A DNA stretch of 64,000 bases, from the NCBI GenBank assembly GCA_973895155.1, contig OZ316898.1, positions 6,497,079-6,561,078 on the forward strand. Direction: 5' to 3'. This document shows positions 1 to 63,519 of the stretch, piece by piece; the stretch's first letter is position 1, and each line of letters starts with the position of its first letter. Under the pieces are notes generated by a model. The model worked only from the letters and a program-made list of their open reading frames with translations. It did no database searches and was not told the origin of the DNA. The position numbers and the translations under genes are program-made. Source of the stretch: Marsupella aquatica (lineage: Eukaryota; Plantae; Marchantiophyta).

Positions 1-3000
1 ACTATCTTTTGCGAGACTAGCCTTTTGTTCAGCTTGTAATGAAGCCATTCCTGCAGCTTCTGCCGCTTCTTGTGCCTCCTTTGCAGCCTTGCAAACTTCA
101 TCCAGCCTCTTGGACACTGTAACACTAGCTTTATCTTTTACAAGTTGTTTTGCCAACATGTCGCCACCTAAAGCATCTAGTCCCTGCTCAGTCTCAACTT
201 CAGCTAGCTTGGCACACCACAACTTATGAGCTACATCATTAGCAAGCTTCTTGGCGTTTTCTGCATTTACCAATGCCTCGGAAGCCACACCCAGTGCCTC
301 CAATCCTGCCTGGGCTGCTACTTTAGCTGCTTGTGTTTTGGACCATCCATCTAAAAACTTACCAGCAAGACGAATCGGCTCGACAGTGTCAATCATTGTT
401 TTCCCATCTTGTTCTAGCTGTGCGATTGGGAAGACGTTCAGAATGTTTCCTAAGTATTGGCTAAGACGGGGCCAAATTTCTAGTCCTGCAATGATCTTCG
501 GACGCACGACCTCCAACTCCTCCACTGGTACTAGTCGCTGAACAAGCCCTCTGAAAATACCCACGGAGAAAGCAACCGACAAGTATTAGAATTATTTTAG
601 TTTTCCAGTGAATGACGTTACATTTGTTTACCCCGTAACATGTACTTGTGTACTTCAAGCATTCGATGAGCTGGTCCTGCATTTCAATCCAGCGAAATTG
701 TATTCATCAGAGCATTGACTTTCATGAAGGGCGTTTCGGCTACTACTAATTCCTTTTTCCGGACTTTGCCTTGCATATTCTTGTGAGCACGTTAGGAGGC
801 TTACTTTTCTTTTGGATTACTCTTCATGGTAGGGGGTGGATCATAATCTACGTGGTATAGTCGGCCAGTCTTTTCATCCATAACTTTTCCCATTGCCCGT
901 CTTAAACATTCATTCTCATCAAGACCTTGCAGTTGGAAATATCCATCAAGCCCGGATCTCAGCTTCATCATCTGTCCATGAAGTCAAGGTCATCTTTCCG
1001 TCTGACATGCATGGACTCTCCCTTCAAAGCAATGCTAGAAATATCTATTTCTGAAAAAAGAGCCTCTCTAGACATGGTTTCCGAAAGAGATTGCAATCCA
1101 CATCGAGCAAAAAATTAAAACCTTGAGGCTTATAAGTCAAAAACACTGCAGCACATAACTGTAACGTTCATTTGCATTATCCACATGATACTCACGTACA
1201 AGCTTAGGAGGAGGGGCGATTCTGGAAGCCGCGGCTTGATGATTTTGGATATGGTCCAGATCAATTCCTGATAACCTCCACTCTAACGCCTTTGCTTCTC
1301 CAAAATTTGTTGGAAACCCGTCCAAGATGAATCCAAACACCTTGACCTCTTGGTCATCCCTCTCAGACTTGGATATAGGTTTTACTCTTGGAGAAGAAGT
1401 TGGTGATTTTCCTTTTTGAGAGGTAGGGGTACCTGCCTAAATTTTTGGGCTTAGGAGGTATTGCATGCACTACACCATGTGTGTTACCTTGTGGTAGATG
1501 TATTTCTAGCCAAGAGCCGAAAAGAAAGTACCGAACAGCATCATTCTGAGGTTACAGTTCATGTCAATGACAGGTCATCTGATTCGAACATCTAAAATAG
1601 CATGTAGCCAAAGAGGAATATCATCTAGGGTGAAGAGTAGTCATTGTGACCCTTGTGACTTACCTTTATTGATGGCAGCTTTGGGATTCTTTTTTGCAGC
1701 AGACCCTCCTTTGCCTCCTGGTAAGATAAAGAGTAGGACGTGTGACTGTCAGCATCTGTTCAAATTGCTATGAAGGTTAAGGGTCTAAAGTTCAGTTATA
1801 ATTTGAAGAACGAAATAAATGATACGATTAATTTAAGTGATTACATATTTTGCATGCGCCTGTGGCAAAGAAATCCTTTAGCTTAACAAATGCCCAACAG
1901 AGAAATGTTTCGGAGTTCAGAGTCTTTAGGTTCTCACCCTTCTTAGTATCGCCCTTCTGTAAAATATCTGGTTGGGCAGGGTGTGCATCAGCTGGCTCCC
2001 GTACAAGGGGAATTGCAAGTGATGACAGACAGAAGAAGTATCAGATTCTCCGCCTACAGGTTCAAACTTGAAGAGATTTGCGCAAGAGGGGAACGCAAAG
2101 TTGTCAAAGGACCATGGCTGTTCCAAACATCAAAGTAACCAGGATACAAACTCTTCTAGTAGACACAGAAAAATCGCCCGTGGCTGAAAATCGTTTCGAC
2201 TAGTGCACACGACTCACCATATTCTTGAAGACTGGATAAAGTCTGCAGAACCAATTCTGCCAAAGCCTCTCCAGGGGCCTACAAAGAGAGAGTAGGAATT
2301 ACGAACTGCAGGATTGTGGTGAAGTTACATTTTATCGATATCGCATATAAACTTTTCCCCATGGGTAGACAGCCAATCTTACTTTAAGCTTCTAAAGTGG
2401 AATCAGAGTGTAATCAGAGTTCTGTTTACTTCTATGCAAAATGGCCCCACCTGCAAGCCTTCTGCCAGAGCAAGTTTAATCTCCATACCACAACGTGCTA
2501 CTGGTGTCAGATAGGCTAAAGGGTGGGGTGGCTCTGGAGGTGGTCCAAATGTTGGTGGTTCTAGCACTGGCTCCGGTGGAGCCTCAGTAGGAATGTCTTT
2601 CTCTTTCTTCTTGGCCTTATCTGGTTTCTTCTTCTCTCCACCCTTCTGTGACTTCTTTGATTCCTTAAGATCACCCTTGCCCTTCTCATCCTTTGTGGCA
2701 GCGTTGACATCCTTCCCCTTTTCTTTCTCTACAACCTTCCCTTTTTCTGTCTTAAATTCCTTGCCTTTCTCAGATGTATAGTCTGCCTTTAGATCAGCCT
2801 CTACATTCTCAAATTGTGGTGACCCTGGTGAGCCAACTTCTGCCCTACTTTTTGACCTTAAGTAAATCCCTTTTAACCCCAGAGCTTCCTGCTTAAGATC
2901 AAATTCTAACTTCTGTTTTTCTTCTAAAATTCTCTGAGCTTCGGCCTCCTCCCTCTTCTTTTCCTCTTCTGCCAACTTTGCTTTGTGAATCTTCTCCTCT

Positions 3001-6000
3001 GCACTGGTTAAACTTGATTTCTCATTAGAAGGTAGAGATCAGTTTTTGAAGGCAATGCCAAGTACCTCCATGTTTGTACTGCAGCTTCCCGTTCTTTGGT
3101 TACAGTTAATTCAAAAGCAGGACCTTCTGTTTCTTCTAATAATGGGATAGGTACTAAAGACTTAGCACAAAGCTTGCATGCAAAACTTACCAACATCCGC
3201 AAGAGCTAGAGCAGCAGTAACTACATTCTGCATCTCAATTCTTACGCACTCAAAGTCATTCTCCACTTTTCTAGCAACGGTGGTCTTCCCTATCCATCCA
3301 GAACAAGCAACAATAGCTATTAGAATCATAATTGAAGATTGAGGATAGGGAGGGGAACTACGGAGACACAAACCAAAAAGAAAGCTTATGTTGTCAAACG
3401 CCGGCTTTTTTTGCATATTCTTGCGGCACATTACCTTTCTACACGTTTCAGGGTCTGTGACGCAAAACGTAATGAAAAGGGTGCAAGAACTGCCATTTTC
3501 TGTACACAGGCATCGATCTAGAGGGAAAATGACCTAGAAGTTAAGGACAGGAGGTCAACGCCAAATAAAATGAAGGATGAAACAGAATACTTTCAATTAA
3601 GATTTTAACTGACCTGCAAATGGAGTACCAACAACTGCGATTTTGAGCTTAAACTGTGTGAGATTGGGCAACGCTGGTGGCTTCGGAGGGCTGTCTGCAA
3701 CATCATGTACCTCAGCCAGAATCAAGCCTAGCTCTTTGTTCTTGCCTATCACATGGGCACCTTGCCATTCTCCTTGCTCCTCAAGATACTCATCCACAAC
3801 AGCCTGCCAATGCATCTCGATTTAGCAAAGAAAGAGCCTTGAACTATTGTGTCCTGGAAGATATTTCTATCCTCTCTAGGAAGTTCTCTACTTCAATTGA
3901 AGATAAGATATGAGTCTCCACAAAATAACCGGAAACAAATAAATCATTTCATATTTTATGGATTGATTCAGGAGCCTGATCCATGACAAGCAATGTCCTT
4001 TGGTATGAAATTGGAGACAACCTTGTGGGATAGAAAGGGCAATCAAATAATGGGATACTGAAACGGAAAGCCGAGCTAGTACTCAACAATACCTAATGCA
4101 ATATAGAGAGAGATTGACCACCACATATGAGCAGGTTCCTGAATCTAACAATCGTGACACTGTTACGAGCATTCACGAGCTCTTCATTGATGTTCATATT
4201 TTGAAGCTCATGTGCACCCCCCAGCAATCAATTCAGCAATGAAATTGTTGCAGTAGACAATCACCTTGGCAAAGATTGAATTTGGATCGGCAGTTGGCTG
4301 CTCATTGGTTATCACATTACCAAAGATTGGACAGGGAAGAATCACTCCTTGGACAAATATTGTCTTCCACCCACGCCAATTTGTTGCAGATATTTCACTG
4401 TTGAACTCGGCTTTGTAATCAATTCGAATTTCCATCATGGTGACTATCTGGTTTCAGACAAATCATAAAAACAGGACAACTGAAATAAGCAAACATTTGT
4501 AGAAATCCTATATTGCAAGACCTTGGAGGCAATCAGCAAAGACATAAGAAGATCCGAAATGAATTGCACCTTAAAAATGGCAGATACCGTATAACGGATA
4601 TGAGGGGTCATACACTTAAAACAAATTCAGTCCCCAAACACTAATTAAGACAAATGCAATGTTCTTTGGATCTGGGATGTACTGGCAGCCAAAAATGTAC
4701 AATTCTAGGACCTACATAGAAGAGGAGAAAAGGTACCTGCAACATAATCTCTGTGCACAAAGTAAATCTTTTAGCCTTTCTATCTTCCTCCTTCTTTTTC
4801 CTCACTGCCTGGATAGAGAACATGGATATCAAATCTTGTTGGGATAAGGGAAAAGAACTTTTAGAAGATTTACAAGACTTGAAACCAGTGTAACTGATCC
4901 AACTAAAAGCAGTGTCATGTGGTGGAATATGATGGAGATTCCTTACTATCAAGACAAGTGAATTTTTGCTTGGATTCAGATGATTGGCCGAGAGTTTTGC
5001 GTATTGTGATTACGGCAGTCTATAAGCAGTTTCCAGAAAATGCTAACACTGTATAAATTCTCCTGATTATTCTCGGACATTTGCACAAAACCTGTTTTCC
5101 AAACGAAGTTCAGTCTCCAGAGAGCATCCTGTGCAGTGACTAGTGTCAATGTGGCGGGTAGCCTTTTCTGGAGTATCTTCAGCAATTTATATGACTGTGT
5201 ACTCTGTACCCGTACACAGCCTAGCAATCCATTTAGCATTTCCCACATGCCTGGAAGGGGTATTAAGAGGCAGAAATAAGGACCTCCCATAGAAGCCATT
5301 CCTGATAGACTTCATCCAAACAATCCTCCCTCATCATAGATAACAACTCATGATCTCGATTGGTCGCTTCATCCCACTCGGCTTGTCTTTCCTCCATAAG
5401 TGCTCTTGCCATTTGCATCCTGTAGTCCACCTTCTTTTGTTCCTCTTCTTCAGCAATGCGTTGTTCCTCTTTTTTCCTCAAAGCCTCCTCCCCCTGCTCT
5501 CTTTCCCAATGTAAATCCTGGACCTTCTTCTCTTCAATTGCATTCTTGAGCAGCCGTTCGGCCTCCTCTTTCTCTAACCTCTCCTGGCATGGCCAAAAGA
5601 TTGCATATTATCTAAACGAATTGCATCAATGAGTCAGACAAATGTTCCTGGTTTAAATGGTGAACGCTAGTTGATCTAGGTACGGAACCAGCTCAAAATC
5701 CCTTCGTGATGCCCTTTTAGGACAGGACACCTCGGAACAAACCTGGGAAGGCTACATGGCTGCATGGCTTAAAGAACTCCAAGAAGCTTCTCCTTTTGAA
5801 AATTTTTTCGGCCAGTAAATGCACACAACTATAGAAATATCCATCCTTCAGACTAACTTGTCTTAGATTCTTTTTATATCCTCAGACAGCAGGGCAATTT
5901 GAGCACTTTCCAGTCTCTCAAGCAAACTCAAATATTTGTGCGAGATTAAATTTCGATGTGAGAATTAAAATTTTATAGGAATCTGCATCGGACAATCTCC

Positions 6001-32129: not shown

Positions 32130-32427
32130 CCAGGTTTGGACTTGCTCGGCAAATAGAGGCTTTAGAGTCCGTCAACTGGCAACTCTTCACCCGGATCGTC
32201 CCAGCTGCCCGATCTTGACTTCCCGGCCCTTCGCGGTCCGGCCCGGCCATACCTCCCGGCCCCAGTCGGCTCACACCCTGCCCCGACCCCGGCCTGTCCC
32301 GGCCCAGCCCTGCACCCGGCCTGGGGAACAACAAGGAATATCCGACATTTGGGCCGATTTTCGCCCAGCAAATGACGAGTTTATGTGTCCGACAACTCAG
32401 CAAGTTGCCCATCCACTTCAAACCTGG
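32130..32427. mobile_element. Non-autonomous hAT element (MITE, 298 bp) related to the 52618-62470 transposon
   Basis: TIR CCAGGTTTG...CAAACCTGG with a perfect 8-bp TSD ATCTCTAG (32122-32129 and 32428-32435). The first about 70 bp and last about 100 bp align by eye with the ends of the large element. CCCGG-rich interior. Confidence 0.92.
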
Positions 32428-43321: not shown

Positions 43322-46300
43322 CATGTTGCATTGGATGCCCAGTAGCCCCAACAACCAGGGAGCAAGATTGTCACAAGATCACCTTCTTGCTTCACCTGTG
43401 ATCGATGTGTAGGCGGCCACCATAAGTTTATATCTACACAAGATGGCTATCACGGCGACTGTGCTTACGATTGATTTTCATTGAGGACAAGCGCTTCTTT
43501 GTTAGGAGGTTTTGGAACCTCACTTTCTCGTGGTGATGATCAATCTCATGCTTGTGATCAATGTCATGTTTGTGATCTTGATCATCATCGTGAAGTCTGT
43601 CGTCAATGGGCATAGAATTGAGGCGTCTGTCTCGATCAGCATAGCTATGAGGAAAGTGAGTATGGTGATGGCGTTTGGGGAATATCTTGCTATATAGTAC
43701 TGTTGGGAGGTCAAACACTTTCCCAGAAGGATGGTGCACGATGAAAGGATTCTCTACCATGTTAGGGAACTCTGCTTCTAATCTCTTTTGCTCTTCTTTT
43801 CGTAATCGTTCTCTTTGGCCAAACTCGGATAGTTGTCTCACAGTGGGATGTTCCAAACGTTGGTAATCTGTGTGAACATATGCGCTAGTGTTGAAGTTTT
43901 TCTCATGGGGGATCATCAGTTCCTTCTCCTTGTCCTTTTTCTTGAGGAGATCCCATTTGGTCACATAGGGCCCACAGTTTTGTGTTGTGATGTATGTGCC
44001 CAAACTGGAGGTAATGAGAGCTGCGTCTTCAACACGGCGGCGAGTGTCTATGCTTAGCTTTGAATGAGGCACCTTGCTTTGCTTGACAAAGAACTTGTTG
44101 TTTGCCATCTTGACGGGAATGCCATATTCATCAAACCCAGCCTTCCTCCAAATCTCCATCCCTGTCACCTGCCTTCTCCTGGCATCCTTGATGTGCTCCT
44201 CCAAATAGCTTCGTCCTCTTCCAAATATTGCAATCAGTGGTGAATAGAAAGCTCCTTTGCATGACTCCGTACCAACCTGTGGATGTATTCGGCAGATTCA
44301 TTGTATGTAAAACAACTTAACAATGTTCTCTTTCACAGGTTTATCAACAAAATCTGTCTCCTTTAGTGAAGTGAAAATGCTGTGGAATATCTCAAAAGCG
44401 AGAAATTGGATTGCAAAGCTAGCTCCAAAGATGTAACGGCTGTCTCAATCTAGGATGACTGGAACAAAACCAAATAATCTGCTAAATTCCACCAGAACCT
44501 ATCTTTCCTCAAGTTCAGACAGTCGTTCAAGAATCCCATCAAAACTGATCACAGATGAGGAGACAGGTGAAACAAACACATGAGACTGACTACGTTGTTG
44601 TTTACCCGGAAGTGGCTGGATTCGATGAAATTGTCAATCTCTGCTTTAACATTTTTTGTAGCCTCTTCTTGCTCTCGCTCCATTTGCTCAAGATAACTTC
44701 TCTTCAGATGTACTCTCACTTCTGTCCCTACCTTGACAATCTTCTCTATGTAAGCCTTTCTTTTGTAGAAGTCGTGCTTGTACTTCCTGCTGTAAAATCC
44801 TCGAAAATGGCGTTGAATTACAATTGCATTCTTTCCAAAATAGATCAAGCGTAAGAACTTGTCCACCCGTCGACGAACCTCCATGGCATAACATCGATGC
44901 AAGTGACCTCGATAACATTTCTGGATCCTGATAGCTTGTGTATGCATCCTCTTCAACCGGAGCCATGCTGCCTTCCTCCGCCATGCACACTGTCCCTCTT
45001 TACAAGGCACCCATGAATCTGATTATTAACAATGTGATATGGCTTGAATAAAAAATTCCCTTTTGCTACGAAAGGAATCACAGGCTCTAGTCAGTTGACA
45101 CAGTTCTTAGTCAACAAAACAACAACGCAAAGATCTAAAATAGATCCCAGGAGGGACTTTTTACTGTAACTCTGGCACAATGGCATTGGCAGCTTACATG
45201 ACTGTCCTGCCTTATTTAATTAGTTTGGTTTTCTATGTAAAATATTGAGATGCCCAACTTCAAAATGTATCGTCCAACCGAATTTACTCTTTGCCTCGGT
45301 GAAGTTAACGATTTCTGGAACGTCTTTTAGACTTGGAATGCGTGAGTGGTCTCGGCAAAGAATATGAACATTGAAATATTGTCCTGTTAATCTTACCTGG
45401 ATCGTCACAGCTGCTTTTGTCTCCTGGGGTCTATGTTCCTCTGCTTCCCTGTCAGCACGCACATGCATTTAGCGTCAGGCCACGGGATTCCCTTTGTTTC
45501 TATCAAAGGAGTTAACACAGAATTTTAGTAGGTGCATCGATCCTCCCACGGAAGTAGAAGAACATCTCGGCTGCCATCGGGCAAGCATTGAAGATTCTAC
45601 AACCCTAGTGAAGGAGTTAACACAGAATTTTAGTAGGTGCATCGATCCTCCCACGGACGTAGAAGAACATCTCGGCTGCCATCGGGCAAGCATTGAAGAT
45701 TCTACAACCCTAGTGTGCTGAGATGGAAAGGCATTTGCAATACAATTGGTTGTGACACGAAATGACAGGACGACGTGAATCGTCTTGTGCTGCAACTGGA
45801 TGGGTTCTGTTCAATGCCCGGAAAGGGCCGTCTTGTCGGAGAATCAACACTTTTAACAACGGTGAACTACTGCGTGACACAGTCGCGTGATAAATGATGG
45901 CATGAACTTGCTGGCTTTGCCTCGTCATGGCGTCGATGAAGTCCAGAACTTCATGCTATACAGTTCTGACATAGTGATCCAGACAGTAGAGGACTAAACA
46001 ATCCTGCATTTTGAGCTTGCAGTGAAACATGATGGGCAATCAGGTCTTCCCACGGACACCGACTAACGTCAGTTAGATACTTTAGTTGATCTGTTTTGTT
46101 ATAGATTGTCAACAAAAGATTCGTTACCGTGAAACATGAAAGAAGCTATTAATGATGTCGATTGTGCATTTTGGGAAGAAATCTCCATTCAACACCCCAA
46201 TTCGGTTCCCCACTATTTCTCGTAGAGGCTGGGGACGTTCTTCTACCTCCGTGGGAGCATCTCCTTCGATTACGTTTCCTTCCAATGTTCCTTTTTCGGA

Positions 46301-51316: not shown

Positions 51317-52679
51317 AGCTTTGTGGTGGGGGCTCCTCTTGCGTGTGATGCATCGATGCTCGTGATTCAACTATGGCAGTGACTACTGTAGTATGGTGAT
51401 GTTGTTTCACAATTCATTTCAAAAACTCATTTATTACAACCCTTCGGTCACACTCTAAATGTTGCCCCTCTTCCTGGTTCTATTATTTAGGTGATAGCAT
51501 TTGCATGAGCTATGTACTTGATGGACTCCCAAAATAGAAAGTTACTTGACTACACACCTAGTGATCCAGGTGGTTGATAGACCTTAAATCTAAGTACAAA
51601 AGCCTCAGGGGTCTATTGAGCATACTCCCATCCACACCGTGTTCTATAATCAGTGTGGAACTGGAATAATCGGCCTGTCCTAGCTAGGAGACCAAATTCT
51701 CGTTTGCACCAGAGGTAGGTTTAGGGTTTAGGATTTAGATTTATTTTCTGTGGCAGGATTTTGGCCACTTTCCCCAAGCAGAATACTTCCAGGTCAAGCC
51801 CTCGCAAAAATATTTGATGTTGGCCAGACTGCCACATGTACGCATCTGGGGCAACATGGAATCTCCCTCCCTTGTGTCAGCCATCAATAGATGTAGGGAG
51901 AGACTGGCTATGTCAACTTTCAGGCCCGAAAGGCTCCCATCCGTGCCAGTCAGGTCCTACTGTTCCTCGAACAATTACTCCTGAAAATGATATATGACAG
52001 CCCACAACCATGGAATGGTGCAGATACACGAGAGTGACCTCTTATTTCTCTTAGAGCCAAGTTGTTTTTGTGCATAAGAATTTAGTGAACCTCGCTTAAG
52101 GATGGAAGTTTGTGCAAAATTGATTAACTGATGCAGTTTGAACTTGGAATCTCACTTGTTGCAATGAATATCGCCTGGGCTACATCTGTTGGGACATCAC
52201 CTGGGCTCCATCTATTGGGACAACTAATTTCAAGCAAACTCTACATTTATGTAGTTCTGCCCACAACAGGTGGCACTGGGATGTGAGCGTCTCTAAGTAA
52301 TGGGCACCATTGAATGGTGGGACACAATAGACCACACTAAGTAAGTTTTGAAGTAACTTTAGTCCAAATCATTTAAGTGGAAAATAATTATGGTTTTCAA
52401 CTCAAAAACAGCTGTGCAGTATAAGCTCCTTTGGACAGCATTTGGCACCCCAAAGGTCAAACAGTCAAACAGAATCGTCTCTCCTTGGAGCATGGTTCAC
52501 ACTATGCACCGTGTATTTAACTCTCCATTTGACTCTCCATTTGCCTGGGGAAGATCAAGGCCCACCCAAATGGCACAGAGTTCCCATGGTACCGTCCAAT
52601 GATTCACCCAACGCAACCCCGGTTTGGACTTGCCCGGCAAATAGACCGTTTTAAGGCCGTCAACCGGCAAGCCGACACC

Positions 52680-53245
52680 CGGTCTCTCCCGATCGTCATC
52701 ATCCGGTCCCGGCCCGAGTAAATCCGGTCCCAGCCTGAGTACTCCCGGTCCTCTTCCCTCCCGGCCCCGGACCCTAAACTTCCTCCGGCCCGGACCCTTC
52801 ACCCTCCCGGCCCGGACCCTAACGCCCCCCCCCCCCCCCCCGCCCCGGACCCTTCACCCTCCCGGCCCGGACCCTAACGCCCCCCCCCCCTGCCCCGGAC
52901 CCTTCACCCTCCCAGCCCGGACCCTAAAGCCCCCCCCCCCCCGCCCTGGACCCTACAGCCCTCCCGGCCCGGACCCTAAAGCCCTCCCCCCGGCCCGGAC
53001 CCAAAAGCCCCCCCCCCCCTCCCAGCCCTAAAGCCCCCCCCTCCGCCCCGGTCCCTAAAGCCCCCCCGGCCCGGCCCACCCCCGCCCGACCCGGGCCCAC
53101 CATGAGGGACCGGGTCGGGCGGGGCCGGGCCGGGCCGGGCTTTAGGGTTAGGTTGCGAGGAGGGCAGCCGCCAGGGGGGATCGGGCTCGGCCACCCGGGG
53201 TCGGCTCGCGAGGTGGGGTGGGGGGGATGAGACCGGGACCGGGGC
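52680..53245. repeat. Left subterminal GC-rich array (CCGGACCCT / CCCGGCCC units with C-runs, switching to G-rich at about 53105)
   Basis: Units of about 50-58 bp, CCGGACCCTTCACCCTCCCGGCCCGGACCCTAACG(C)n, repeated 3-4 times. Confidence 0.9.
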
Positions 53246-53911
53246 TATAAAGTGAGGAGGTCTCCTCACTTTCTCTCATTACTAACTTTTCAACTAAAGT
53301 TTGCTTGTTTTGTAGGAGAGACCTTTGGTAAGTTTTTCTTGCTTTTGCTTATGTTTTGCTTAGTTTTGAGTTTAGTTTACTAGTTTTTGAATTGTTTTGA
53401 GTCTTTTTTTTGCTATGCTTTGCCATGTATGACTTTAACATTTAGTTTTAATTTGGAGGGATATTAGTGTTCTCACGTATGCGCATGCTTGGAGCTTATG
53501 CTTGGCATGTGGTATTTCGTATGAGAAAACCTAATATTGCCTTAACAGTTTAGTGTGATTTGTGAATTGAGTGGAGTATTTTCTAGGATAGAGATTTTCA
53601 TGTACGCATGCTTGGAGTTTCCGCTCGGCATGTGGTACTCTGCATGGATATCTCGATTTCCACAACATGACATCTAAACTATAGGTTTCACATAGATTGG
53701 AATAGGAATGTAACAACTTGAAGGAAAAGACATCTTTTGTGCGCATGCTTGGAGTTTCGGCTTGGCATGTGGTATTTCACATAGTTGTCTTTCCCCTTCA
53801 TCGTTGTTACTTTCAAAGTACTAAACAAACGAATAAAAAATTGAAAAAATATTAAAATTTCATTGTTTGGGTATTATTGGTACCAACACAAAGTGTGAAA
53901 TGACATTTCAG
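53246..53911 (+). promoter_or_regulatory. Putative cargo promoter and 5' UTR intron: TATAAA at 53246, donor G|GTAAGT at 53328, acceptor TTTCAG| at 53911
   Basis: The TATA box lies immediately after the GC-rich array. Consensus splice sites flank a T-rich 584-bp stretch upstream of ATG 54025. Confidence 0.5.
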
Positions 53912-54024
53912 GATTGTTGATCCAGCTTTATTGTACTTGCATCATCCATACCCTCGGCAAGCAGCCAACACACTCCGTAAGCGCCTATTCTTTGTCCTAC
54001 AACTTGTTGTGGTTACTTGAGAAC

Positions 54025-55683
54025 ATGGCCGCTGCAAATGTGAGTGTAGAGTATATGAAACTTTTTGAGGCAATGAAGACCATGCTAAACGAGGAATATC
54101 AACCAGATCCTCATGCCCTCAATGCTCTACGGAATGCTCACAAAACCTTAGAAATTTGTAAACATGGCAAAACCTTAGGGAAACGGAAACATAGAGGAGG
54201 AGCAATTGGTGCTGCATTGAAACAGAGAAGGCAACATGTGTTAGTTGCGATTTGGAAAAAGATTCTATATCCCTACACTTTGCCAGCACAGTATGAGCAG
54301 GATGGCTTTGAGAGGAAGTATGCTATGCATGGAGCAGAGGGTTACAAAAATCTTTTAAATGACATGGGACGTTGCATGCATGAGACTGTGGAGAAAGAAG
54401 AGGACATGACCCGAGATGAAATTGCTGCCTTAATAGGTGATTTTGAGAAGCCGGGTGGATTTGTTGAACATTTGGCGTTGAACTTTGCGGTAAATCTTTG
54501 GGACAAGTTGGAATCCAATTTGGATGAGGCTGGGGTCGTCATGCTTGGAGTTCCTGGGCTATACACACATAGAAGAGATTTGCTAGCTAAATGGAGCAAA
54601 GAGTTAGCAATGGCCAAATCGGAGAGTAATGTCAAATATGCGAGCAAGGTCGTGCAGTTTGGAGAGATTGGCGTGGAGGTTGCAGATAGAGGAACGCGTC
54701 CATCACGAGTTGTTCCCATGGTCAGGAGTATTCATTTCTTGAGGAGGGAGCAAGTATCGAATTTGCATCGCATTGGAAGCGGCATCCAAGGACATGTGTT
54801 CATATGTCATATATTGGATTGTCCATTGATTCCTCGAAATGCAACACTGGTTGCAAAACGATTTAAGGATGGAGACCGACACAAGAGACGAACAGATGCC
54901 TTACAAGAAGTGCTCATGAGAGGTTTGAATCACAAAGGAATAATTGGGGCCTTGGCAATGACTATCGAAGATCCACCGAAACTTATCTATGACCATTACA
55001 ATGGAGAAGACTTGGGAAGCTTCATAGATAAGTGTGGGAAATGGAGTAAGAGCAAAGGGAAGACACAATCCACTTCTGAGGTTGATATGACATTCATATC
55101 CAAAAAGAAACTCTTTTTGGAACATCGTTTGGGGATTGCTATGGCTCTATTGGAGACCTTGCAATATTTGCATGCACACGACCGTTTCCATTGTGATCTT
55201 CATTTTGGGAACATCCTTCTTCACTTTGATCACGAGGATGATTTGGCAATTAGAGTTTATGTAGGAATATGTGATTTTGGGTTGTCCAAACACAAGTCAC
55301 AATGCACATTACCACAAAATCGAATGTGGCCCACCCCTATAGAGAAAGCAGTTGCGTATCAAAAACAATATCCACAATTGGCGCCTGAGCTAGTTCGTTC
55401 CGATCCAGCAGAGTACAGTCAAGCAACTGACATATATGCTTTGGGCAATATCTTTGAGACATTACTCACAGAAAATTGGGATGGAATGACCCCAATGACA
55501 TGATTTTTGAATAGGGGTTGGAATGCTAAAGAGCATGGCCCTAAATTGGATATTATCATACGTGACATGATGGCCATTGATGTCAAGAAAAGAATGGATT
55601 GTGTTCATTGGAGTTTGAGAATGATGAGGACATTCCAAGATTGTAGATTAGTTCAGCACAATAGTCCTTATCTAAGAGATTAG
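54025..55683 (+). pseudogene. Transposon-borne protein kinase (ePK fold) with an unknown N-terminal domain of about 245 aa; one premature TGA at 55501
   Basis: G-loop IGSGIQG, LVAKRF, helix-C Glu (ALQEV), HCDLHFGNIL, DFG, APE, DIYALG. After TGA 55501-55503 the frame continues with subdomain-XI-like LDIIIRDMMAIDVKKRMD to TAG 55681-55683. Confidence 0.88.
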
Positions 55684-55856
55684 AGATTTCATAGTTTTAT
55701 CGTGAATGACAATGATAGATGTCATGAACTATTATCTATTTAATCATGTCATATGAATTAAATGTATTACTCATTTTGCTTCATTGTATTTTGTTATCAA
55801 TTTTATCTTGAAGGGTGTATGGTGAATGAATGCTAAAAATGTTTTTGTTATTGTAG

Positions 55857-57785
55857 AATCTGCAAGGATGGGATTTGGAATCCGACGAGGAGGAAAAACC
55901 TAAAAAGATTCCATATTTATATTTGCAACCTGCTCAGGATTTACACCTTTGGTCTCAGGATCAATACACTGAAGAATATTCTCAACCCATAGACGAGGAC
56001 ATTGGAATGAGTAGCAATCATGCAGGGCAAAGCATAACCAAAATGAATGAGGACACCAAGGATGTTAAATGGAATATCACAATGCCAAATGTGAAACCTC
56101 CTCACAATGAATGGCTCATCAACGCCAAAGAATTGGAGATATTGATGCCACGTGTGGAGTTCCAAAAATGGATGAAAATCATTTTTGATGATGAAAATTT
56201 ATGGGCCACAAGGTCTTGGATGCAAGAGAAGTACACAATGTCCAAGGTAACACATGTGGAAATTGGCAAGCATTGGTAGCAAAGATTTCAAGAGTATGCT
56301 CCAAAGAAAGCGCAAGGCAAAAAAAGCTCGGTTTATCCTCCTTTTCTCCGACTCCTAATTGCTGAATTTATTCTCAAGTGGAAGGTGGATTACCGTTGGG
56401 AAACAGAAGAGGGCAAGATGATTCACTCTGTACATCAGTCTGTCCTGGACATTGCAGGTTTCAAGAACAACAAAAATACTACAAAAGATATATCGAGTCA
56501 AGCAACCAACAAAGGGTCAAAAAAAAAGATACATGATGTGCAAGACATTCATGCACATCAGAAAGATAAGCTGACTGCACTAGAACGACTCTTCACTAAA
56601 TCTGAAAGTTTCAGCGCACCAAAACATGTGGACAAAACATCAAACATTGCAGCATCTACAAGTAACAATTTACCAGGAAAATTCACTGATGTTTTGGATC
56701 CAAAGAAAGAATCATTGAGCATGGAGATTGTGTGCAAAAGTTTGAGCACAGAGATTGGTCATTTGATCGAGAATAATCTCCGCACAAAGTTTTGTCTTGA
56801 CCTTTGTGAAGCTGGCAGCATTGACTACTACAAGTCAAAGTTGCAAGATAATATTTTGAAGATGAAAGCAATGGAAAAAATGCCCATTCAAAGTGTGACT
56901 ACTTCGGAGGTGAAGGAATACAAGGTGCAACTGTATGACAAGATGGAGGAGATCGCAAAGCTCAACAAACAACTTGCCCAAAAGGATGGTCAATGTAGTC
57001 AAATGAAACAAGTTCAAGAGGCAGATAGAGTCATTGAGGATTTGAAGAATCAGGTTGCATCACAAGAGGTGATCATAAGCAATCTGCAAGAGGAGATCGA
57101 GCAAATGAACACTGCTGAGGTGGATGGGCAGTCAGACAAGGAAAAATCAAGATGCAAGAACCACAATTATATGAACTTGCAAATGATTGATCCTACGGGA
57201 GAATCTCATTTTTTTCCGGATGTGGAGGAGGATCCAGAAGATGTAGAGAAATTTTTTGACAAGTGGAAGACCGATGAAAGTATGGCCCAATTTGTTCGAG
57301 AAAAGGATGGAAGATGTACTTGGTGCTTGTATCCATGGGGTCCTGAATCTGTTTCCATTTTGGGAACATGCGGTCACTTATGGCATCATGCTTGCTTGTT
57401 TCGGTGGATGAAGAAGAGCCGAAAATGTTGGTGTCGAAAACCATTTCATGAACGAGAGTATGAGCAACGAGGTTTGTTGAAACAAATGCCACCAATGGAG
57501 ACACAGCAAGACACTGAAGACATGACTCAAGAGAGTATTGCAATGGCACAGATCGATTCAAGGCCCATTGACAACTTCACAGTTAATGAATACAACTTGT
57601 CAGATGGTGACTTTGACAATTTGCTATTCAATGGTAGATTCCAACAGTGGAAGGAATATGCCATGGCCAATCGACCAACAATAGATGAGCAAAACATGCA
57701 ACGATCTATTCGTCGCCATCGTCGTCGTCAGCAACTGGCAGAGGTGAAAGCAGAAGCGCAAGACAATGACAACCCAAATGAGTAG
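55857..57785 (+). pseudogene. Transposon-borne coiled-coil + RING-H2-like protein; one premature TAG at 56277
   Basis: ORFs 55875-56279 and 56385-57785 are in the same frame and separated by a single TAG. Heptad-rich segment (YKVQLYDKMEEIAKLNKQLAQ...IEDLKNQV...LQEEIEQM) followed by C-x2-C-x14-C-x-H-x2-H-x2-C-x10-C-x-C at 57315-57434. Confidence 0.82.
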
Positions 57786-57897
57786 ATTGCACACACAATG
57801 TTTAGTATAACATATTTTATTGCATAGGACATGCACAATCCGGCATAGTATATCATAGTTTGTCGTATAGTACTAGCATGTAATACCTAAACAGATA

Positions 57898-60800
57898 TCA
57901 AGGTTGTGACGAAAAGTGTCTTGTGTTATTGTTCTCATTTTCTTGCAAGTGTCGATCAAATTGAAATTGTCTTGTCATCCATTGGATCGGATCTGCGCTA
58001 TGATATTCTTGAAATGCCCCAACACGGGCATGTATGCTTGATGTGTATGGATTTGTCATGTTCTGTCTTTCATACATATTTTGTGTTGGAGAAGCATGTT
58101 GTCCCCACTGTGCATCATCAGGTTGCGCAAACAAAGTTGATGTTGTTCTCTCAGGACAGAGCTCCGATGCAGCACCTCGTTGTTGAAATAAGTACGAAGT
58201 ACTTGCTTGGACATCATTTTGTAGATTCAATGTTGGGTATGTGAATGATGGGTTTGGTTGGGAAGGCACTACAAAGTTTGCATCAAATGAGTAGTCCTCG
58301 TCATCCTGAATTTGAGACTCATCGATTGTAGGGAACATCATTAAATCCATTTCATCTTCCCATTCTCCGACATCACTTATTTCAGTATCTGGTGGAATAC
58401 GAGTCAACATGTCACTATGAGTGTGTAATGATAATCCTTGCAAAGCCTCATCTGCGTCATCAATTGTATCAAAATCCTCCACATCATCCTCTCCAAGAGC
58501 CGCACATGTAACACCATGTTGTTCAGTGTGACATTCTTCTATGGAAGTAGGCCTCGGGCCATCATTTGTTGCTGTTCTTTCATCATATCGTCTATACATA
58601 GACGTATGAGGATTTCTCACCTTCGTGAGCCCTTTTTGCACCCTCGAATTTGTGAATACAAAAACCAAGTCTTTTGCTCGATCATTGGTCAACCTATTAC
58701 GGCTTTTTGAATGGATATAGCCGTACGAACTCCAATTTCATTTGCATGAAGATGCACACATTTGTTGATGCATGATTCTTCTCGCCATCAATCTTAGCTC
58801 CGCGTAATCAGCTCCATACAAATGCCACCACTCTCCTGGACTTAATTTCCCAATATTCGATTGTGCTCCTCTAATTGCAACCGATGAATTTGGCAATTTT
58901 TTTTAGCCTCAAATGCCTGCATTTGGATGTCAGAAATAAGTGTCGTCACATCTCGATCATGGTTGATTCCTGCCTTCACCTTGTGTTCTGCATATCTATG
59001 AACGTAATCATTGAAGCCTCTATACAGTTCTGCATCTCCTGCCACATCTTCATCTTCATCGAAGAAAAATTGAGGATTCAGATATGCTGCTGCTAACATG
59101 AAATCAGTAGTAAGTGATTTTCGTTGATCCATATACACTTTCATTATCTTTGGTTTTAAGTAATCTGTTACTAATGTACAACCCTCCATGCTCGCCTCCA
59201 GTTTAGCTATTCCTTTTTTCAAGCTCCAATATAGCCAAGGAGACTGTGGTGAAACTCCATCGAATTCTCGCAACATCTTCACCAACGGCAGAAAAAAAGC
59301 AACTGTAGATTTTACTTGAGCCCAAAATGTATCTTGTTGTATCCACGATTTAAGTTCGTCTGCCTTTCCCCTCGTCATATGCCCCTGTGACTTTGGTCGA
59401 ACTGGCAGGCGATCACGATTGGATTGCCACTTATCATAAATGACCATTTGTTGTAAAGCTCCTCTTAGCTCCAATGCTCTCTGCGCCATTAAAAAATTTG
59501 TTGCAAATCTCGTTGCATTTGGATTTAACAACTTCCTGTCACCAGATTTCCTCACAAATATTGCAGACAACTTTTGTGATGATGTAACTGCTTTAACTAT
59601 CCATCTCAAGTGCTTAAAAATCATTTTGAATGGATTTTTTTTCCGCTCATCTAGCACAACATTCTTGTGGCCACACATGTCTTCTAGCAACAAATTAAAA
59701 ACGTGGGCAGCACACCAACTCCATGTCACATGCAGATATTTTTTCATGACTATCTCTTCACCTGCTACACGATTTGCAGGCGCCCCATCGGTAACAATTT
59801 GTATGATGTGATCGGCGCCAATGTCATCTATGTATTTTAACCACATGTCACCAAGATACTTCCCATCTTTCTTGTCGGCTTGTGCAGCGTTCCAACTATC
59901 CAAAAAGAAATCTCCTTTTGAACTCAACAACATGACATTCATCAAAGGTTCCCTTCGGATATTTTCCCATCCATCGGATGAAAGGGAATATCCAAAAGGT
60001 TTTGCCTCCTTCATTGTTTTTGTCATGTCCTTTGTAAGATCAACTCTAGCCTCCTCCAATAATTTCATTCTCAAATTTTTCATACTCGGAAGAGAATATC
60101 CATTTACAATCCCTTTCAAGGTTTCTGTGACTGCTTCACGGAAGAAACACCAAGATACTTCCCATCTTTCTTGTCGGCTTGTGCAGCGTTCCAACTATCC
60201 AAAAAGAAATCTCCTTTTGAACTCAACAACATGACATTCATCAAAGGTTCCCTTCGGATATTTTCCCATCCATCGGATGAAAGGGAATATCCAAAAGGTT
60301 TTGCCTCCTTCATTGTTTTTGTCATGTCCTTTGTAAGATCAACTCTAGCCTCCTCCAATAATTTCATTCTCAAATTTTGCATACCCGGAAGAGAATATCC
60401 ATTTACAATCCCTTTCAAGGTTTCTGTGACTGCTTCACGGAAGAAAGGATTCTCCGACACATTGAACGGAATACCACTTGAATAAAAAGCTTTGGCCCAC
60501 AGCTTATCCAAATGAGCTCTATTTGGAATTTGATAAACATCCATGATTGGGTTTGCAAAATTTGATGCTCTACTTCGATGACTCATATTTCCATCCTCAT
60601 CGAGGTCAACAAAATTTGAGTCTCGAATTGATGCTTGCGAATTGGAAGATGGGTTATATGACCTACGACCTCTCATGGATAACAAAACATGACTTCCATC
60701 ACTTCGTTTGTACTTTATGGATGGGTCAACCTTTATGACATTGTACATTCTATTGATGTCATCTAAGTCAACAACTCCATACAAGCCTGTGCAAGGTGGC

Positions 60801-61054
60801 GCATCTCCTTTGTGTATGTTTCCCATCAAATGTGCTTTTGCTCGTGTTGCATGACGCGTTGTATATTTCTTACAAAATTTGCATCTTCGATATATACGAT
60901 TAATATCATTACACGCTGATGGCGTATCACATCGTTCAAAATATTTCCACACTGGGGAAAATTTTGCACTACGATCTCGATTGTGATTTCCACTGTGCCT
61001 AACAGGAGTAGAATGAGCTGATGAGTTGCCCGACTCATCTTCTTCGGAAGACAT
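57898..61054 (-). pseudogene. hAT transposase (BED finger, DUF659-type RNase H-like core, C-terminal dimerisation domain), disrupted
   Basis: SPVWKYF...CKFCKK...AKAHL; AFYSSGIPFNVSENPFF; SLSSDGWENIRREPLMN; QIVTDGAPAN; CAAHVFNLLLEDM; NATRFATNF; AAYLNPQF; PGEWWHLYG; CASSCK*NWSSY...RNRLTNDRAKDLVFV. Removing the 299-bp duplication and adding 1 nt at the T8 run (58897-58904) gives one 953-codon frame with a single internal stop (58738-58740). Confidence 0.95.
59849..60446. repeat. Tandem duplication 2 x 299 bp inside the transposase (frameshifting)
   Basis: Units start at 59849 and 60148. Two substitutions seen (LPSMKN vs LPGMQN). Confidence 0.95.
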
Positions 61055-61714
61055 GATCGAAAACAAGAACTTTACACACAAAGTGTCTTTTTATACGTCA
61101 CTAAACATAGTCACTTAATAAAAATTGAATGATTATTTGTTAGTCTTTTGAAATAACAACAATAAAACGAGAAAAAAAAACTACTGTGAAATATCACACG
61201 TCGAGTCAAACTCCAAACATGCGCACAGCGGTTCTCTTTTGTTTTCTGGTTGTTAACATTCCTATCTGACGTATGTGATATCTATAATTTAATGAGCATT
61301 TGTCGATATAGTGAAAACATATGAGACAATTAGTGATAATCATGTAAAATATCACATGTCAAGCTTTAGCTCCAAACATGCGTACATGAATGTCAACATT
61401 GTCGAAATTTGTTTCACGATACCCACAAGTACCACTAAATTGTTAAGGGATAAGAAGAAAATTATTATGTGGATTACCACATGCCGAGTAAAACCTCCAA
61501 GCACGCGCGCACAAAAGTCTTTTCTATCTCTTTACATAGAGTGCTCTACTTTTAGTGAAGTGTGTCTAATGAGAAAAAACTCAAAGTTTTATACAATTTA
61601 GAATGAAAAAATGTTCTATATTTAGCGGGGTTGAAATACTAGATAGGCGAGAAATCGTCACAACCCCAAATTAGCAGATATGGCTTATCTCAATTGAGTT
61701 TATCCATAACTCTA

Positions 61715-62370
61715 AAACCCGGGCTTATCTTCCCTTAACCCAGGCCGGGCCTCCCTCCTCCCTGCTCCAACCCCTCCCTTCACCCGGGCCGGGCCTCCCT
61801 CCTCCCCCCCCCCCCGGGCCTCCCTCCACCCTGGCCGGGCCTCCTTCCCCCCCCCACCCGGGCCTCCCTCCACCCGGGCCGGCCCTCTTTCCTCCCCCCA
61901 CCCGGCCCTCGTCCGCCCCCTCCCCGGGCCCCCCTCCACCGGGCCGGGCCTCCCTCCTCCCTGCTCCCACCCCTCCCTTCACCCGGGCCGGGCCTCCCCC
62001 CACTCGGGCCTCCTCCCCCCCGGGCCTCCCTCCACCCGGGCCGGCCTTCCTCCCTCCCCCCACCCGGGCCTCGTCCTCCTCCCCACCCGGTCTCCTCCCC
62101 CCCCACCCGGGCCCCCCTCCACCAGGGCCGGGCCTCCTCCCTCCCCCGCCCCCCCCCCCACCCGGGCCCCCCTCCACCCGGGCCGGGCCTCCTCCCTCCC
62201 CCCACCCGGGCCTTCCTTCACCCGGGCCGGGCCGGGATGTAAAGCCGGGGCGTAAAGCTGGGGCCGGGGCCGGGGCCGGGTGACAAGAGGTAGGGGGGGG
62301 CCGGGCCGGGTCCGGGAAGAGGCCGGGAGGAGTTCGGGCCGGGCCGGGAGAAGTTCGGGCCGAGCCGGGG
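61715..62370. repeat. Right subterminal GC-rich array (CCCGGGCCGGGCCTCCCTCC units, switching to G-rich at about 62225)
   Basis: Dense repeats of CACCCGGGCC(GGG)CCTCC. The strand skew mirrors the left array. Confidence 0.9.
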
Positions 62371-63519
62371 AATAATGACGAATATGCGTCAAATGAGAAC
62401 ATTTCAGGCCGGCAAATGCCGAGTTTACGTGCCCGGCAACTCGGCAAGTTGCCCGTCACATCAAACCGGGAACGCAACCTTCTGTTAATTCCAGTTTTGC
62501 CATGCCCGTTTATGTGACTCTGATCGAGATGGGACGATCGGTGCTGTCCTTGCAGTTTGGGGCTGGGTGGGGGCTGCTGCTGCACACCTCAAACCCACCA
62601 GTTCTGGCTTGGGGGAGGCACCTTCTGGTGAGCCTGGAGCTCGGGTTTGAAATTGGCACAGGCTGGTGGGGGTCAAAAAAGATCAACGGCAAGCACCTCT
62701 TGCTAAGGACATTGTCGTGCAAACATTCCCCTGGACGGTTGGGGATGCTCTTACTGTATATACAATCCAGCCCAAATCGGTCGAACAGTTAACAGAATCT
62801 TTCTTGGGCTGTAGTATGCAATCCCACCCAAATTAGGCCATGATCGATCACATACAACCCAGGTTTTGGACCGAACTTACACTGATGTAAGGGCAGTCCC
62901 AACAAGGCCAGGGCAGAAGGGAACCCTCCTTTGCTATTTTGATACAAAGCATCATTTGCACGTTTTGATTCCTCTTCCCATTTTCCCTGTCACCCTAGAC
63001 TCTCACGGGGGACACTTCAATTCATCAACCGTCTCCTCCGTCAACCCCCAGCCATTTTCGCCTCACATCCTTTCTACCTCTCTGTCCAGATGAACAGACA
63101 ACACCATTGTCTATCTAAAGCCCTTCCCTTGCTCGGGAAATGTTGGATTAAACTAATTGTTTTCCTGGCCAGTTGTGAATTTCGAATGCAGAAAACACTG
63201 TCCAGGCTGTGCTGGGGATTATGGAAAATACAGCAAACATACGAACAGCAAGTTCACACTGTCCTTTTAAGTCAAAGTAAACCTTGTTTCGACTCTTCTA
63301 CGCGCACCTCGCTGCTTTGCAAACAAATGTGCTTTGTACCTACCGGACCTAATGCTCTCTCACAGTCAGGTCATTATCGGGATAACTCAAGATGGGGGTC
63401 ATTGTAAGCCATGTCTTGATTAAAGAAAACCAGCTGCCTTTGATTGACATGATTTAGACTGACAGTGACAAGCAACAAGACCGCGAACTTTTGGAGTTGA
63501 ACTCAATCTTGTTGGATTG

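Follow-up and report, generated by a model that had tools for sequence, protein, structure and literature searches.

The DNA analyzed here is a stretch of 64,000 nucleotides (nt) from the liverwort Marsupella aquatica (assembly GCA_973895155.1, contig OZ316898.1, positions 6,497,079 to 6,561,078), called the window below. A hAT-type transposon of 9,853 bp spans 52618–62470 of the window, with a perfect 8-bp target site duplication (TSD) on both flanks. Its transposase gene is on the minus strand. Two cargo genes are on the plus strand; one encodes a protein kinase, and the other a protein with a RING-H2-like finger (Table 1). Their leader and spacer suggest that the kinase gene likely lies within an intron of the RING transcript.

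Structure of the transposon

The ends of the element were located by way of a 298-bp non-autonomous relative at 32130–32427, which resembles a miniature inverted-repeat transposable element (MITE), has the same type of ends and is flanked by its own perfect 8-bp TSD. The TSD length, the short terminal inverted repeats (TIRs), the subterminal repeats and the transposase with DUF659 and a BED-like finger are all of the hAT type; DUF659 is presumably a hAT-family domain. The element is a hAT-type transposon with the kinase and RING genes as cargo. DUF659 was detected in the transposase with an E-value of 8.5e-30, above the Pfam cut-off, and zf-BED with an E-value of 0.0054, below the cut-off. The hATC region is interrupted by stop codons and a frameshift, and the open pieces of 37 and 279 amino acids (aa) have no Pfam match. 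A sequence search of PDB with the transposase gave no match at E up to 1. The transposase frame is also disrupted by a 299-bp tandem duplication at 59849–60446 (99.3% identical), which is either a recent event or an assembly artefact.

The window copy is decayed, and its kinase, RING and transposase genes are all broken. The kinase frame has a premature TGA at 55501–55503 (codon 493 of 552), and the RING frame has a premature TAG at 56277–56279 (codon 146 of the joined 647 codons). Because of these stops, the window copy is predicted to make neither the full-length kinase nor the full-length RING protein. An earlier reading of the window from its sequence alone, here called the sequence-only reading, gave product lengths of about 552 aa for the kinase and about 647 aa for the RING protein, and overlooked the stop in each frame.

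Contigs of the family were obtained from five public runs (X1–X5) of three coded organisms. The kind of these runs is unrecorded; they are DNA-like in appearance, and hence uninformative on splicing. Among the 8 joints listed for them, none links 54039, 53976 or 53327 to 55857. Each of X1–X4 contains 498–954 contigs that fall into several identity classes, which indicates that the element family is multi-copy. Every listed contig of X1–X4 reads C in place of T at both 55501 and 56277. Both stops are therefore private to the window copy.

More distant relatives are represented by proteins and by two metagenome loci (L001 and L002), which were taken from 218 pattern matches. The only organism named among the protein relatives is the liverwort Calypogeia fissa, in which two kinase relatives are fragmentary and the RING relative is without the finger. 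A kinase relative (P0008) and a RING relative (P0014) come from one source, and the record of each gives a contig of 5,391 bases, which suggests linkage of the two genes in a distant relative. No relatives were found in the viral contig or genome contig collections searched.

Table 1. Features of the transposon and its flanks; positions are those of the window.
Feature	Position	Strand	Basis or remark
Left TSD, 8 bp	52610–52617		same letters as 62471–62478
Left TIR, 9 bp, perfect	52618–52626	+	end as in the 298-bp relative at 32130
Left GC-rich CCCGG-type subterminal repeats	52690–53240		sequence and self-BLAST
TATA-like box, candidate cargo promoter	53245–53251	+	only CTATA[AT]A on the plus strand of the element
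Donor-like GTAAGT, likely start of leader intron 1	53328–53333	+	best of 141 GT sites by rough score; outside the coverage of L001
Three 30-nt hairpin repeats	53482–53511, 53605–53634, 53742–53771	+	same orientation as the cargo genes
Candidate acceptors of leader intron 1, CAG ending at 53911, 53925 and 53964	53909–53964	+	none high-scoring
Donor-like GTAAGC at -48 from the kinase ATG, where the kinase-holding intron is proposed to start	53977–53982	+	L001 has this hexamer equally far from its kinase ATG
Kinase gene, 552 codons, helical N-terminal domain and protein kinase domain	54025–55683	+	Pkinase, E 4e-16
Donor-like GTGAGT of the sequence-only reading	54040–54045	+	not conserved in relatives
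AT-rich spacer ending in acceptor-like TGTAG; candidate region of the kinase poly(A) site	55684–55856	+	like sites in L001 (2581) and L002 (1451)
Site of the missing 8 nt, which contain the RING start codon in copies of the family	55867–55868	+	contigs of runs
RING gene remnant: acidic N-terminus, conserved helical region, coiled coil, RING-H2-like finger	55868–57785	+	zf-RING_2
RING-H2-like finger	about 57312–57428	+	zf-RING_2, E 4e-5
Broken hAT-type transposase	57898–61054	-	BED-like finger, DUF659; stops and frameshift near 58740–58860
Three further hairpin repeats	61195–61507	-	sense to the transposase
Right GC-rich subterminal repeats	61720–62370		sequence and self-comparison
Right TIR, 9 bp	62462–62470	-	perfect pair to the left end
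Right TSD, 8 bp	62471–62478		same letters as 52610–52617

The kinase keeps the Gly loop GSGIQG (251), the beta3 Lys in AKRF (277), the alphaC Glu in LQEV (293), the catalytic Asp in HCDLH (389), DFG (417) and APE (453). These are all the catalytic motifs expected of an active eukaryotic protein kinase. In the structural model of a relative, P0003 (mean predicted local distance difference test score, pLDDT, 82), about 200 residues form a helical N-terminal domain, which is followed by the kinase domain. The top match of its kinase fold in PDB has Z 22.9, with a root-mean-square deviation of 2.9 Å over 245 residues and about 20% identity. The matches are tied among plant receptor-like, IRAK and tyrosine kinases (8ho6, 8jup, 8v1o and 3bkb), and a search of a structure atlas returned generic kinases. 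The cargo kinase shares its fold with TKL and tyrosine kinases, but differs from them in sequence, in the HCDLH catalytic loop and in the helical N-terminal domain.

A profile search collected 18 kinase proteins at E up to 1e-30, plus a more distant sister group. Full-length relatives with open frames occur down to 44–50% identity. Between the window and L002, nonsynonymous divergence (dN) is 0.33 and synonymous divergence (dS) is 2.25. The resulting dN/dS of about 0.14 indicates that the kinase is under purifying selection. The L001 kinase shows 47% identity to the window kinase, and synonymous sites are saturated between them (proportion of synonymous differences, pS, 0.82). The sister family (P0051, P0061, P0063 and P0066) includes kinases of 440–470 aa, in which the DLH/DFH catalytic loop is the same and the helical N-terminus is a different one.

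The RING protein is a possible ubiquitin ligase. Some features make this role less certain: the zf-RING_2 match scores 24.3 bits against a curated Pfam cut-off of 27.3; the last pair of the eight ligands is C-x-C instead of C-x2-C, likewise in relatives; and the model of a relative, P0029, has a mean pLDDT of 48, with the finger under 50. The P0029 model gave generic coiled-coil matches only (Z up to 5.2), and residues 60–200 of P0029 had no match in the structure atlas.

Outside the element, an exon with an IQ motif (Pfam IQ, E 1e-6) is seen at 44549–45022 on the minus strand. It probably belongs to a host gene.

Start codon of the RING gene

The sequence-only reading described the RING frame as devoid of ATG. 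This holds for the window copy, but not for the family copies. In contigs of all five runs, 8 extra bases, ATGGGAAA or a decayed variant, follow position 55867. They account for 700.7 of 700.8 depth units in X1, 69.6 of 69.6 in X2, 654.8 of 955.2 in X3, 316.2 of 316.2 in X4 and 2 of 2 in X5. In X3, the insertion is listed for all but about 300 of the 955 depth units; loose ends there are compatible with it without being proof. The counts refer to the listed rows, from which three rows of one table are absent. The only listed change of TGTAG is found in one X3 contig, whose depth (130.9) equals that of the contig with a mutated ATG, an observation in favor of the splicing discussed below.

With the 8 nt, the RING frame has an ATG of its own, 11 nt downstream of the acceptor-like site ending at 55856. 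RING relatives start with MGRWDL, MGKWDL, MSRWQL and MAEVPW at the column of this ATG. The start given by the 8 nt agrees with P0016 and P0029 (MGKWDL) and with P0015 (MGRWDL), and P0014 and P0025 have Met in this column. Gene callers choose ATG by design, so these Met residues mean that an in-frame ATG exists and do not prove its use. The window copy has lost one of two short direct repeats, by which the ATG was removed and the upstream NLQG was brought into frame. The 8-nt loss and the two premature stops are features of the window copy, and the RING gene has its own ATG in the family copies.

Leader, spacer and possible splicing over the kinase gene

Both the window (53977) and L001 (497) have the sequence GTAAGC exactly 48 nt upstream of the kinase ATG. 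It is the only GTAAG within the 544 nt of the L001 leader, at a distance where synonymous sites are saturated. The DNA of L002 stops short of this region. If it were paired with an AG ahead of the kinase ATG, the intron from 53977 could measure at most 45 nt, and usual plant introns are longer. Because a nearer partner would leave such a short intron, a distant splice partner is likely for this donor.

A candidate for the partner is present in the spacer downstream of the kinase gene. In all three loci, an acceptor-like YAG precedes the downstream ATG, by 11 nt in the family copies, by 11 nt in L002 (TGTAG) and by 2 nt in L001, and is the first or second among the spacer AGs by the rough score. 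The spacer is only 171–172 nt long in the window and L002. The sequence-only reading had given it as 170 bp and AT-rich; by measurement it is 172 nt and 74% AT. None of the three spacers contains TATA[AT]A. Between 54025 and 55867 there are 70 ATGs, which rules out leaky scanning to the RING ATG.

Based on the -48 donor, the acceptors, the spacers without TATA and the 70 intervening ATGs, the kinase and RING proteins are likely produced from one promoter with a noncoding leader, in which the choice would be between reading on and splicing over. By a splice in the leader, the entire kinase gene would be taken out as an intron. This explanation is slightly favored here. Transcription could start near 53275. 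Leader intron 1, from the donor at 53328, would remove 18 upstream ATGs together with the hairpins described below. The candidate acceptors of this intron all lie past the last upstream ATG (53900), and in both the window and L001 every upstream ATG precedes a candidate leader acceptor. For the kinase mRNA, the RNA would read on through 53977 to the kinase ATG and end in the spacer. For the RING mRNA, the donor at 53977 (or 53328) would be joined to the acceptor at 55856, and the first ATG met would be the RING ATG, 11 nt later. Each mRNA would give one product or the other, with no codons shared between them. It can be speculated more weakly, by analogy with accessory genes of other plant transposons, that the two proteins modify host or transposase proteins and keep the element active.

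Several observations weigh against this explanation. The GTAAGC at 53977 scores 1.5 and ranks 63 of 141 in the window, while the one in L001 scores 6.5, and the comparison of the -48 donor covers two DNA sequences. The T content after vs. before this donor is 0.38 vs. 0.23 in the window, and 0.33 vs. 0.40 in L001. All splice scores derive from a rough plant consensus table, not from a trained predictor. The nested splice is plausible from sequence conservation in two to three loci. Each of the three spacers also contains a weak donor-like site (scores 5.6, 6.1 and 5.6), which would allow a short leader intron and a separate promoter. Plant promoters often lack a TATA box.

These last points lead to the strongest competitor, two ordinary tandem genes. 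Here, the RING gene would have its own TATA-less promoter in the 3' end of the kinase gene or in the spacer, and the acceptor would close a short intron in its 5' leader. The RING ATG and the weak donor-like sites are in line with it, and a difference in the next gene between the window and L001 is expected of independent genes. On the other hand, the short spacers without TATA leave little for such a promoter, and the conserved -48 GTAAGC is left without explanation. Several Arabidopsis Spm families have two separate tandem genes instead of splicing (PMC13547354). Arabidopsis Spm families alternate between splicing and split genes (PMC13547354; bioRxiv 10.64898/2026.08.24.746577), which keeps the tandem-gene explanation alive. 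It is possible, and clearly less probable than splicing over the kinase gene.

Alternatively, one read-through RNA could contain both open reading frames (ORFs), with the RING protein made by re-initiation or internal entry, and the acceptor-like site could be the end of an intron in the 3' untranslated region or a chance occurrence. The short spacer, the same strand and the absence of an evident second promoter would fit. It is improbable, given the 70 upstream ATGs, the acceptor-like site adjoining the ATG in all three loci and the inefficiency of re-initiation after an ORF of 552 codons.

The sequence-only reading proposed a kinase/E3 switch in which one ATG serves both proteins, a donor at 54040 linking five kinase codons to the RING frame. 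The ATG at 54025, GTGAGT at 54040, TGTAG ending at 55856, the T-rich tract and the upstream GCTAA are all present. The intron of 1,817 nt and the in-frame join MAAAN/NLQGWDLES were also confirmed, in the window copy alone. The 54040 site ranks 3 of 141 GT sites in 53240–55860, and GTRAGY occurs 0.5 times per kb on the plus strand of the element; by the rough score the site is fair-looking, and unremarkable as a donor. The shared-ATG model is rejected, because in the family copies the RING gene has its own ATG and the 54040 splice is out of frame, and because relatives lack the donor. In copies that have the 8 nt, the join puts the RING frame off by 2 bases, and a stop follows about 50 codons on. 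The donor requires a Val codon in the kinase, which is found in 0 of the 13 kinase relatives with an N-terminus, and the L001 DNA has no GT there. RING relatives start with their own Met. Two outcomes that the sequence-only reading itself had named as refuting, an independent ATG for the RING ORF and a donor not kept in relatives, were thus observed. A fused longer form was not seen among proteins of 1127–3215 aa, which is weak evidence. What stays plausible of the switch from one promoter is the nested intron, with a noncoding leader and another donor. For genome scans, it is a caution that one 8-base deletion in a dead copy produced a convincing, false gene model with a shared start codon.

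The two genes could also be inert host fragments captured in the style of Pack-MULEs, with splice-like sites as noise, as the three broken genes of the window copy and the C. fissa relatives might suggest; this is highly improbable and largely refuted by the purifying selection on the kinase, along with the full-length open relatives, the retained catalytic motifs and the absence of both stops from the family contigs.

In L001, the same kinase and leader are followed by another gene, containing DUF6729, whose ATG lies 2 nt after an acceptor-like CAG. This suggests that the kinase cassette may move between element types. The DUF6729 gene at 2584–5521 looks like a two-exon gene, contains a D...DxxH pattern and is an unrelated gene. 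It may be another kind of transposase. Comparison of this L001 ORF with the transposase of the window revealed no similarity, and no literature on DUF6729 was found. The downstream peptide of L002 (33 aa) shows weak resemblance to RING N-termini (scores 23–40).

The leaders also contain a 30-nt hairpin repeat. Besides the copies in Table 1, L001 has two full copies at 107–300 on the plus strand, sense to the following gene. On the sense strand, all 8 copies adopt an almost identical stem-bulge-stem structure (z -1.8 to -3.4); folding of the antisense strand is poorer (z +0.4 to -2.7). In the alignment, 95 of 96 cells pair, and 4 of the 12 pairs are changed on both sides. This covariation score was reached in none of 500 shuffles, and pairing in slid controls does not exceed 44%. 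These controls are generous, since the sequences are related and also served to derive the structure. One U-G pair is invariant, and one G-U pair is kept in 7 of 8 copies, which favors RNA over a DNA palindrome. Rfam had no match to the hairpins, and only a weak microRNA-family match at 53080–53124, far below the gathering score. A search of 71 kb with the hairpin model returned only its 8 training copies. A role of the hairpins in the splice choice is a guess.

Other splice-like sequences are seen near the start of the leader. A perfect branch-like TACTAAC, a T-rich tract and a TGTAG ending 12 nt before the donor at 53328 are found within 53280–53315. A weaker donor-like GTGAGG is at 53252, and a leader micro-exon of 12 nt is possible if transcription starts further upstream. 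In P0008, the in-frame stretch before the true Met (residues 76–90) has F-G-K some 15 codons ahead of this Met; it might correspond to the same GGTAAG donor, located there at about -44.

Comparison with other transposons

The closest parallel to splicing over the kinase gene is En/Spm. In maize Spm, the tnpD ORF is inside intron 1 of tnpA (PMC2613891). As proposed for the liverwort element, one transposon promoter gives two proteins in Spm, with a whole ORF in an early intron of the other transcript. En/Spm belongs to CACTA, its nested ORF is the transposase, and the partner is a DNA-binding protein. In the liverwort element, unlike Spm, both products are non-transposase cargo, and the transposase has its own leader on the opposite strand. 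The element does not belong to CACTA: instead of CACTA ends, a 3-bp TSD and TnpD/TnpA products, it has ends and a TSD of the hAT type, and a kinase and a RING protein.

With plant hAT elements that have DUF659/BED transposases (Ac/Tag1-like), the element has in common the 8-bp TSD, the short terminal and subterminal repeats, the BED-like finger, DUF659 and a small non-autonomous relative. To our knowledge, typical hAT elements encode the transposase only. The liverwort element differs from them by two conserved extra genes facing the transposase and by the repeated leader hairpins. No hAT carrying kinase/RING cargo was reported in the literature searched, which excluded subscription journals and supplements. 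The element is unusual for its kinase and RING cargo under selection, for its conserved leader hairpins and for a splice that likely skips the kinase gene.

Arabidopsis VANDAL elements have extra selected anti-silencing accessory genes (VANC) and family-specific repeated noncoding motifs (bioRxiv 10.64898/2026.08.24.746577). The liverwort element is likewise a DNA transposon with selected extra genes and repeated noncoding motifs. VANC is a sequence-specific transcriptional regulator on Mutator-like elements, and its likeness to the kinase/RING pair is one of accessory role. The leader repeats resemble RNA hairpins, by the invariant U-G pair and the restriction to the sense strand, and not DNA sites.

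It can be speculated, rather doubtfully, that bryophyte DNA transposons share a portable kinase-in-intron switch, in which a leader with three conserved RNA hairpins and the -48 donor lead to either the kinase mRNA or the mRNA of the next gene (RING here, DUF6729 in L001). One RNA-binding factor, from the element or the host, might set splicing and output of both arms through the hairpins, which are also in the transposase leader. If true, a circuit of phosphorylation and ubiquitination under RNA-level control would be borne by a transposon. Should the proposed roles of the nested splice and the hairpins hold, they would form a small switch at the RNA level in a transposon of a bryophyte. A kinase and a RING protein kept under selection suggest that transposons may rewire host signaling or protein turnover, beyond chromatin.

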